DNA of 64,000 bases from the NCBI GenBank assembly GCA_046542995.1, contig JBKHAH010000003.1, positions 15,566 to 79,565 on the forward strand, in the 5' to 3' direction. Made by a program: the position numbers and the translations under genes. The DNA is from Bacteroidales bacterium (lineage in GTDB: Bacteria; Bacteroidota; Bacteroidia; Bacteroidales; Tenuifilaceae). Every line of letters starts with the position of its first letter. The stretch's first letter is position 1. The notes beneath the pieces were generated by a model. That model ran no database searches. It was not told the origin of the DNA and saw only the letters and a list, made by a program, of their open reading frames with translations. This document shows, one piece after another, positions 54,459 to 56,840 of this stretch.

Positions 54459-56840
54459 TTATTTGTTTTTACGCAGTTGATTCATTAACTCGTCAATCTG
54501 CTTTTGTAGCATTAGCTCCTTCTCTTTGCTTTCAGTTATGTTTATACCTAGGTTGATTATTTTAACAACCTTTCCTGATTTATCACGTATTGGCGTGTAT
54601 TGTTCCGATATCCATACAGTTTTGCCTTTTACGTTTAGGGAGAAGTCTCTTTTTTCAATATTGCCTTCCAGAATGCTGTTCCAGAATTTTTTATACTTTT
54701 CAGGTTTTGTTTTTGCTTCAAAATCAAGTTCATGATGCAGCTTCCCTTCAATCTTGTCTTTGCTATCGCCCAGAGTTTCTACGTTCTTATTGTTTATGAA
54801 TAGTATTTCTCCTTCTGGGCTTATTTCAGTAACAAGGCATGTATTATCAAGGGCCTGAAGTAGCGCGGCGATTTCCTCTTCTTGTTGTTTTGTGATTTTT
54901 TGCTCTTCTTGGAGTTTAATTAAATTCTGCTCTATCTCTTCGGCTTGCTGCCTCGCTTTAAGCTCAATATTTTTGGAGTCTGTTATGTCCTGTCCGAGAT
55001 AGAATATTTTGTAAAGCTCGTTATTTTCATCAAAGGCTGGTGTAATGCTTGCCAGGGTATAAAACTCCTCGTTATATTTATTCAGCCATTTTAATGTACC
55101 CTTAAACGTTTCTCCTTTGGTAATCGTGTTCCAGGCCTCATTGAATGTTGTAGTATCATCAGGATGAATAAACTCTTTTATTGTTAGCTCTTCAATACTG
55201 TCCTTAGTGTGTCCAAATTTTTCAAGGAAGTTTAGGTTTGCAAACTGGAAGTTGCCCGATTCAGAGAGTTCACAGAAAAGGAGTGCTTCGTTAATTGCAG
55301 AAGTAATGCCCTCCATTTCAATTGTCTTACGTGCCATCTCTTCCTGTGTAGCTTGCATCTCTTCCATGTTTTGCCTCATCTCCTCTTCTTGTGCCGCCAT
55401 CTCTTCTCTTTGTTGTTGCGATTGCTCAAGAAGTTGTGTTGTACGAATGCTGTTTTTAACCGCTGATAACGTTGAGGCTATGTTTTCACCAATCTTTTCA
55501 ACAAATTCAATTTCATGTTGAGAGAGGTTGTTGAAGGATGCTAATTCGATTACACCAAAAACTTTTTCTTCCAACTTTAGAGGAACTATCAGCAGGGTGC
55601 GAGGAGGAGCTTCTCCTAACCCGGATGTTATTTCAATATAATCTTCAGGAATTTCTTTTAGGTAAATGGTTTGCTTCTCAACAGCACAATTACCAACAAG
55701 CCCTTCGCCAAACAGAATTGTTTTTTTCTTTGATTTTTTCCGGTTGTATGCAAAGGTTGATAGAAGTTCGAGTTCGTGTTCGTTATCTTCGTTTTCATTA
55801 ACGATAAACAGTCCGCCTTGGTTCGCATTAAGGTAGTTGACCAGTTCCTGAGTTACATTATCCGACAGGGCTTCAAGCTCATCATTATTTTGCCTTAAAA
55901 TGTCGCCAAATTTTGCCAGGCCGGAGTTTACCCAGTTTCTGCGTTGGTCCTCCTGCTTGCGTTCTTGCTCTTCCAACGAGGCTTTCTTCAGATTAGCTCG
56001 CATGCTTAATAATGAGTTTCCTAAAGCATCATTTGGCCCTAAAGGAGCATATTCAGTATTGAGGTTATTTTGCCCAATCTGCGTGGCAAATTCCGCTGTT
56101 CTGCTCAACCCCGCAATAAGCTTGTTAAGGGATGAGGCTATTTGCCCTACCTCATCGTTCGTACTATGTTGTATTTTTTGGGGAGTGTCCCCTTCTGCCA
56201 TTCTTGTGAGGCTCGAATTAATTTTTGAAATGGTTTTTATAACGGGGCGAAGTGCGTAATTAATTGCAATGGCAGACAAAGTTATACCAGCAAAAATTAT
56301 TAACAATAAAATTATTCTATTAGTCTTTAGGTCCTCTGTTATTTCCGAGAAGTTAACCGGGATTGCAATAAATGCATCATAAGAGTCTATCTTTTTAAAA
56401 TAAACAATAATTTTGTGTCTTTCATTCCTAACCTCCTGATAATATTCGAAAAACCCTTCTTTGTTTGGGTCAGCAAACACTCTGTTTAACCTTTCGGTTG
56501 GGTACTTTTGACCCTCACGGTATAAATGGATTAGGTAGTTACCCTCTTTACTTACCAGAAACGGGTAATCAGTTGAATAAAAGGCGGGCTTATTGAAGTA
56601 ATTCTTAAGCTGAGCATAGTCTTGATGCGAGAAGCCGTCAGGAGTTTGCTTGTCAATTTCAGTAATAATATCTGAAATCTTTTGCAAATAAACCTCCATT
56701 TGCGTTTGCGTGGTATTGAGCAAGCGTTTTAGGCTGAAACTATAAACCGTGAAAGCAGCCGCGCTAAATAAGAGCACGAGAAGCGTAGTTACTACAAGTA
56801 GTATTCTGTGCTTTATTTTAATGTTATTTAAAAACTTCAT
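54459..56840 (-). CDS. Sensor protein: TM - Cache-like periplasmic domain - TM - HAMP - GAF - coiled coil - PAS - coiled coil - PAS, no recognisable output domain
   Basis: 793 aa. HAMP ([22 protein letters not shown]...[18 protein letters not shown]), GAF ([18 protein letters not shown]), two PAS blocks. Ends without a kinase, phosphatase, GGDEF or MCP-signalling domain. Confidence 0.8.
   Translation of the reverse strand: [793 protein letters not shown]

Follow-up and report, generated by a model that had tools for sequence, protein, structure and literature searches.

What do the two CheR-type methyltransferases and the CheB-type methylesterase of an operon without a chemoreceptor act upon? 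The question is raised by a gene cluster in the 64,000-nucleotide stretch analysed here, hereafter the window (positions 15,566 to 79,565 of contig JBKHAH010000003.1, GenBank assembly GCA_046542995.1, from a Bacteroidales bacterium of the Tenuifilaceae). Its nine genes, all on the minus strand, encode a CheR (CheR1), a membrane sensor, a second CheR (CheR2), a CheB lacking the receiver domain, a transmembrane (TM)-GAF protein, a PP2C phosphatase, a SiaB-like kinase, a SiaC-family protein and a fusion of TerB with ABC transporter domains (Table 1). An initial annotation had drawn attention to the hexapeptide EEMQAT in a coiled-coil helix of the sensor, read it as the canonical methylation consensus of methyl-accepting chemotaxis proteins (MCPs), and proposed that the helix accepts methyl groups. 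Our analysis arrives at a modified form of that proposal, which we favour tentatively and place slightly below an even chance: the helix would accept methyl groups as the adaptation element of a CheR/CheB system that does not serve chemotaxis, tuning signalling through a GAF-helix module common to the sensor and the PP2C phosphatase, with the phosphatase opposing the SiaB-like kinase on the SiaC-like protein and the TerB-ABC transporter as the likely target.

The anatomy of the motif is as first described. EEMQAT comprises sensor residues 493–498 and maps exactly to 55347–55364 of the minus strand by reverse-complement translation; minus-strand positions 55323–55439 likewise give the 39-residue helix peptide quoted in the initial annotation, and a plus-strand reading of that interval was rejected, its translation being nonsense. 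The motif matches EExxA[ST], follows the GAF domain, and holds the third of four acidic pairs spaced seven residues apart along the helix (EE at 479/480, 486/487, 493/494, and 500/501). The parallel motif reported for the phosphatase, EEMRAT, is equally real; it lies just after the GAF domain at 51191–51208 (minus strand) and aligns with EEMQAT column for column. Across all six-frame open reading frames (ORFs) of at least 60 residues in the window, both EExxA[ST] and the heptad pairs EE[LM]xxxxEE[LM] are confined to these two proteins.

Taken alone, the six-residue match is weak evidence. In composition-matched shuffles of the 39-residue helix, the sensor sequence yielded EExxA[ST] 2.7% of the time and the phosphatase sequence 1.7%, and the hexapeptide frequency was 7% with the EEM frame fixed. 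It is the conservation of the helix across orthologs, and not the hexapeptide match, that sets the feature apart from chance. When we looked at whether the EExxA[ST] register is kept among orthologs, as the initial annotation had suggested, a helix of ~45 residues proved nearly invariant in 120 sensor orthologs sharing 39–87% overall identity, with [QL]ATQEE[MI] falling within its invariant stretch. When 48 sequences were aligned, invariant columns were concentrated at sensor residues 467–508. Entropy is lower there than anywhere else in the protein (0.34 bits; mean 1.55), and no Pfam or NCBIfam model spans these residues. Solvent-facing positions of the helix are also conserved, as would be expected if it had a conserved partner and were not constrained by packing only. 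The occurrences in the sensor and the phosphatase, previously counted as two independent ones, are not independent because they sit in paralogous modules: sensor residues 229–510 and phosphatase residues 99–364 share 41% identity across a linker-GAF-helix unit of ~280 residues.

The genomic setting of the helix is conserved as well. The nine genes travel as a block and never with an MCP. Among metagenome loci of this CheB clade, each of the 23 whose flanks are long enough encodes two CheR proteins, at least one helix-bearing protein, PP2C, SiaB, and SiaC, and none encodes an MCP, so that the CheR/CheB neighborhood noted in the initial annotation is both real and retained. The same gene order recurs in Williamwhitmania taraxaci, with a sensor identity of only 46%, and in a Flammeovirgaceae metagenome-assembled genome (MAG), whose version of the operon has a single CheR and encodes a shorter sensor. 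Both CheR proteins and CheB look active, as their S-adenosylmethionine (SAM)-binding motifs and Ser/His/Asp triad, respectively, are intact in comparison with solved structures. Pfam and phmmer searches of the window and the operon loci recovered no ORF with an MCPsignal domain, leaving the operon without a chemoreceptor; a phmmer query with a Tsr signalling segment likewise had no match in the window and found the true MCPs at locus L073 and in protein P0232, which served as positive controls.

Enzymes encoded in this way could nevertheless serve another substrate, such as orphan sensors of GAF-helix-PAS architecture or a protein encoded outside the window, with the operon's own sensor and phosphatase left unmodified. 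Tandem arrays of 4–5 paralogous module sensors found elsewhere do resemble a receptor repertoire, but the operon-encoded helices are conserved as much as, or more than, the orphan helices, and the adjacency of CheR, sensor, CheR, and CheB is strict; we regard this explanation as very improbable.

The closest functional precedent comes from Bacillus cereus, where the CheR-like RsbM methylates RsbK, a hybrid kinase of CHASE3-HAMP-GAF-S-helix-HK-REC architecture, on the signalling helix (S-helix) that follows the GAF domain and precedes the kinase, and where purified RsbM methylates RsbK in vitro with 14C-SAM (PMC4574943). The RsbK pathway runs through the PP2C phosphatase RsbY (PMC4574943; PMC12848376). 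In both systems, a CheR-type methyltransferase gene adjoins that of a membrane sensor with HAMP, GAF, and helix, and the RsbK pathway ends in a PP2C and a partner switch, as we propose here. Compared by architecture, the two differ in several respects. As a hybrid histidine kinase, RsbK includes a receiver domain, whereas the present sensor has no kinase and continues into PAS domains; RsbY is a receiver-PP2C protein, whereas the PP2C here itself bears the GAF-helix module; RsbM is an orphan methyltransferase (PMC4574943), whereas this operon has two CheR proteins and a dedicated CheB; and the RsbV/RsbW/sigma-B pathway stands in place of a SiaB/SiaC-like partner switch. Among non-MCP sensors with experimentally documented reversible glutamate methylation, RsbK/RsbM is the sole case that we found in the literature. 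By analogy, it supports a methyl-accepting role for the helix. The predicted methylation would plausibly be of a known kind, CheR-type modification of a post-GAF signalling helix, with the dedicated CheB, the two CheR proteins, the Sia-like switch, and a widespread undescribed module as what is new.

The sensor is output-less, as the initial annotation held. Neither Pfam nor the AlphaFold model reveals a kinase, cyclase, MCP, or other output domain, and HisKA, HATPase_c, Response_reg, and the MCP signalling domain PF00015 have no Pfam match in the protein. From the N-terminus, Pfam and AlphaFold together place a TM segment, a Cache-like beta domain, a second TM segment, HAMP (residues 198–245), a 46-residue helix (272–317), and GAF (321–458), followed by a continuous helix (441–519), PAS (523–621), a long helix (620–667), and a second PAS (656–772). 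The AlphaFold monomer model has a predicted template modelling score (pTM) of 0.35, its folded parts being ordinary GAF and PAS domains. The sole segment with a predicted local distance difference test score (pLDDT) below 50 comprises residues 490–508 (55317–55373, minus strand), the C-terminal half of the conserved helix including EEMQAT, and this local uncertainty of the model would fit a helix that requires a partner or is only marginally stable. The conserved helix extends from the final GAF helix to the first PAS domain and displays its four Glu-Glu pairs on a single face. It is presumably a parallel dimer, in which, to judge from the module consensus, Met/Leu would fill one core position and Gln/Asn/Thr the other.

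On the interpretation that we favour, CheR would methyl-esterify, and CheB hydrolyse, at least one helix Glu in the sensor and/or the phosphatase. The resulting change of charge on the acidic face would make a marginal dimeric coiled coil more or less stable, or shift its register, and thereby reset the relay of Cache/HAMP/GAF input downstream. In the phosphatase, this signal would set PP2C activity against that of the SiaB-like kinase, and the PP2C/SiaB balance would decide whether the SiaC-like protein is phosphorylated. This partner switch would probably act on the co-transcribed TerB-ABC transporter. The output-less sensor would probably work through mixed oligomers with the phosphatase, formed via the shared GAF-helix module.

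The lower half of this scheme resembles the SiaABCD system of Pseudomonas aeruginosa, in which a SiaA-like PP2C, a SiaB-family kinase, and a SiaC-family protein are likewise encoded together. The phosphatase PP2C domain aligns with SiaA at an E-value of 2.6e-50, falling below the equivalog cut-off since only that domain aligns. The two systems part at the output: SiaD is a diguanylate cyclase, whereas no GGDEF protein is encoded in the present operon, where TerB-ABC follows SiaC instead. Given this fixed place after SiaC and the missing diguanylate cyclase, the transporter may be the target of the Sia-like switch. To our knowledge, the Sia scheme includes neither a GAF-helix-PAS-PAS input nor CheR/CheB.

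How far, then, does the helix resemble a chemoreceptor methylation site? EEMQAT and EEMRAT both satisfy the short enteric consensus Glu-Glu-X-X-Ala-Ser/Thr; EEMQAT resembles the Tsr site MEQLTAT; and, of 429 copies of the helix module, 299 have [EQ][EQ]xxA[ST] at this offset. MCPs such as Tar and Tsr share with the sensor helix Glu-Glu pairs seven residues apart, and share with this operon the CheR and CheB encoded alongside and a sensor without enzymatic output of its own. They differ in that the operon encodes no MCP signalling domain, CheA, or CheW, in that this CheB has no receiver domain, and in that the MCP adaptation region forms an antiparallel bundle as opposed to one continuous predicted helix.

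Several observations weigh against the methyl-accepting interpretation, and the first of them concern the site itself. The ten-residue extended MCP consensus, reportedly [ASTG][ASTG]xx[EQ][EQ]xx[ASTG][ASTG] according to Alexander and Zhulin in 2007, fits only 2 of the 429 module copies and neither window protein, while a Tsr MH1 control fits twice. The EE of EEM[QR]AT (module positions +8/+9) is Glu in 45/45 phosphatase helices, 41/42 sensor helices, and 428/429 module copies, with one Gln at each of the two positions among the sensor helices and likewise among all 429 copies. In the AlphaFold monomer model, helix 441–519 is single and continuous, with neither a hairpin nor an antiparallel four-helix bundle. 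Because the extended consensus fails, the EE is almost invariant, and the geometry differs, "canonical" is too strong a term, and E494 is perhaps not the modified residue; the modified residue, if any, may lie elsewhere in the helix.

Variation between Glu and Gln, which is typical of many chemoreceptor sites, does occur at other pairs of the helix: at position −6 in phosphatase (Q17/E15) and sensor helices (E24/Q5), at position +2 in phosphatase helices (E36/Q9), and at position −5 module-wide (E272/Q68). This variation supports a methyl-accepting helix, and it also suggests that methylation could fall on the variable pairs (sensor E479/E480 and E486/E487 and their phosphatase equivalents), with EEMQAT as a recognition or structural element. 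Such a distribution would account for the near absence of toggling at +8/+9, and AAQEEE places small residues upstream of one pair, just as the first half of the MCP consensus does. Only the +8/+9 pair, however, is followed by the Ala-Ser/Thr that the enteric consensus requires, and methylation sites need not toggle between Glu and Gln at all; we consider a restriction to these other pairs rather unlikely.

The remaining contrary observations concern the breadth of the module. Searched against 1.84 billion proteins, a profile of both window helices matched 2,928 representative clusters at E ≤1e-3 and 405 at 1e-10, with the consensus LLxESQQQAEE[LM][KR]AQEEE[LM]RQN[ML]EE[LM]xATQEE[ML]. Many of these proteins carry 2–9 copies alternating with PAS domains. 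Nearly all of 45 sampled representatives combine GAF and PAS; SpoIIE is the last domain of three and MCPsignal that of one. Their 25 most frequent families include neither a histidine-kinase nor a receiver domain, and the best 147 representatives include eight with a SiaA-like PP2C and none with a fused CheR or CheB. In the species genomes of GTDB, 79 module loci were located, almost all in Bacteroidota, of which only nine have CheR/CheB within 10 kb. A general link between the module and CheR/CheB neighborhoods was accordingly rejected. Eight of the nine are operons of the present type. The ninth, L073 (942–11347, in a Bacteroidales MAG), encodes a CheA-CheW fusion, an MCP, a CheR, a HATPase protein, and a REC-CheB, with the gene for a 766-residue GAF-helix-PAS protein immediately downstream of cheB; being a classical Che cluster with its own MCP, it was rejected as independent support. 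The other module loci are orphans, some of them with four or five paralogs arrayed in tandem.

These same observations lend weight to a different explanation, that the helix is an unmethylated signalling or dimerisation linker, conserved for mechanical relay or for a non-enzymatic partner, with the EExxAT match coincidental in a Glu-rich heptad repeat and CheR/CheB acting elsewhere. The S-helix, reportedly described by Anantharaman, Balaji, and Aravind (2006) as a segment of ~40 residues that joins sensor to downstream domains and has a conserved polar core motif, may be likened to the present inter-domain helix. A mere linker would explain why the module recurs between PAS domains with no fusion to CheR or CheB, why 70 of the 79 loci lack these enzymes within 10 kb, and why the core Glu residues do not toggle and the extended consensus fails, and the hexapeptide arises in 3–7% of shuffles. 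Yet the operon holds two CheR proteins and a CheB with no MCP and no other comparably conserved Glu-rich helix, and in the RsbK precedent it is a post-GAF helix of this very kind that is methylated (PMC4574943). The orphan module genes, for their part, are compatible with methylation in trans. Chemoreceptor genes are themselves mostly scattered away from cheRB, so an unlinked position does not exclude methylation. On balance, the linker explanation is the main rival, a genuine possibility though a somewhat unlikely one.

The methyl-accepting proposal of the initial annotation thus stands in part. The motif, the phosphatase parallel, the operon, and the RsbK precedent argue for it; the epithet "canonical" and the independence of the two occurrences do not hold, Glu/Gln toggling is almost lacking at EEMQAT itself, and the module is distributed well beyond CheR/CheB neighborhoods.

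A bolder proposal, which we consider somewhat unlikely, goes further: the helix QEEE[LM]RQN[ML]EE[LM]xATQEE[ML] would be an undescribed portable methyl-accepting module, and thousands of Bacteroidota GAF/PAS sensors would be CheR/CheB substrates in an adaptation network free of CheA and CheW, converging on the GAF-helix-PAS PP2C and a SiaB/SiaC switch that controls TerB-ABC. Its substrates would then include output-less sensors, tandem paralog arrays, and proteins with up to nine module-PAS repeats. If the helix is methylated, as in the interpretation that we favour, adaptation of the CheR/CheB type would extend to a large GAF/PAS sensor family, here mainly from Bacteroidota, without kinase or cyclase outputs; the role of the operon's CheR and CheB would be explained, no chemoreceptor, CheA, or CheW being encoded with them; and sensory adaptation would be coupled to both an ABC transporter and the PP2C/SiaB/SiaC partner switch. 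The helix offers a concrete candidate substrate, a 45-residue peptide with four Glu pairs, and a named species, Williamwhitmania taraxaci, with the whole operon. Our literature search found no description of this Bacteroidota CheR/CheB-Sia system or of the helix motif.

Table 1. Positions of the operon genes and of the helix features within the window, with the evidence for each assignment
Feature	Coordinates	Strand	Basis
CheR1, protein-glutamate methyltransferase: CheR_N and SAM-binding domain, with IWHAGCSTGQE and RNVIIYF motifs	56864..57703	-	Pfam, NCBIfam, structure alignment
Membrane sensor, 793 residues, without output domain	54459..56840	-	Pfam, AlphaFold model
Hyper-conserved helical module (sensor 467–508), candidate methyl-accepting/adaptation helix	55317..55442	-	Clustered invariant columns, lowest entropy, predicted helix
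EEMQAT hexapeptide (sensor 493–498)	55347..55364	-	Translation, mapping; A and T kept in 353/429 and 352/429 module copies
CheR2, divergent CheR paralog	53614..54444	-	Pfam, NCBIfam
CheB methylesterase catalytic domain, no receiver	53040..53651	-	Ser/His/Asp positions align with T. maritima CheB
TM-GAF protein, 267 residues; GAF paralogous to sensor and phosphatase GAFs; without helix	52224..53027	-	Pfam
Phosphatase: TM, linker, GAF, helix, PAS, PAS, PP2C (SpoIIE/SiaA-like)	49610..52246	-	Pfam, NCBIfam, paralog alignment
Paralogous phosphatase helix NQKTEQLLHEAQQMTQELKENEEELRQNAEEMRATHEELEKSNIQLESK, with EEMRAT	51149..51295	-	Mapping, alignment
SiaB-family protein kinase (DUF6272)	48996..49571	-	SiaB_fam_kinase model, 176.6 bits (subfamily cut-off 85)
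SiaC-family regulatory phosphoprotein	48601..48984	-	Pfam PF09345, 147 bits
TerB, ABC ATPase, and ABC-2 permease fusion, candidate output	45463..48558	-	Pfam; directly after SiaC in 33/33 loci

Some further features of the operon genes deserve mention. The true start of CheB is probably the Met of MYKAV near 53606. The TM-GAF gene is kept between cheB and the phosphatase gene in loci L001/L002 and L027. The TerB-ABC fusion is shared by the window, loci L001 and L027, and the metagenome loci. Downstream of it, conserved proteins of ~303 and ~145 residues without a Pfam match are encoded in 31 and 26, respectively, of the 33 loci with enough sequence. Within the sensor, the helix between the two PAS domains (residues 620–667; 54840–54983, minus strand) resembles a degenerate second copy of the module, with EE-I-E-Q-N-L in place of EE-M-R-Q-N-M, and is moderately conserved among orthologs.

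A related helix is also associated with CheB/CheR fusion sensor kinases (KEGG K13924). In short fragments that bear the JGI name CheB/CheR fusion protein, a heptad EE-L-x-[ST]-x-N helix, NEELQSTNEELETSKEEL, adjoins PAS_10, which links EEL-heptad helices to CheB/CheR enzymes and counts in favour of the methyl-accepting interpretation. Many predicted proteins of ~60–90 residues among P0268–P0328 contain nothing but the NEELQSTNEELETSKEEL helix, in some cases followed by the beginning of PAS_10, and about a third have this JGI name; probably they represent pieces of genes from contigs that are short or broken. These helices differ from the present one in having no RQNMEE core, and the fusions, known here from short fragments only, differ from the present operon, where the enzymes are encoded by separate genes. 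We found no functional study of CheB/CheR fusions in the literature.

Three further arrangements were seen among the module proteins. Tandem arrays of ~770-residue GAF-helix paralogs occur in L012 (5826–17734), L015 (1215–10213), and L039 (3219–12891) with no CheR/CheB nearby, and are reminiscent of a receptor repertoire. The 841-residue protein P0232 is a bona fide MCP with PAS, helix module, PAS, HAMP, and MCPsignal, the module being in its N-terminal half, so that module and MCP adaptation region coexist in one protein. Finally, the giant proteins P0121 (1,989 residues), P0122, P0132, and P0135 contain six to nine module copies, mostly alternating with PAS domains, those of P0122 being back-to-back repeats ~70 residues apart.

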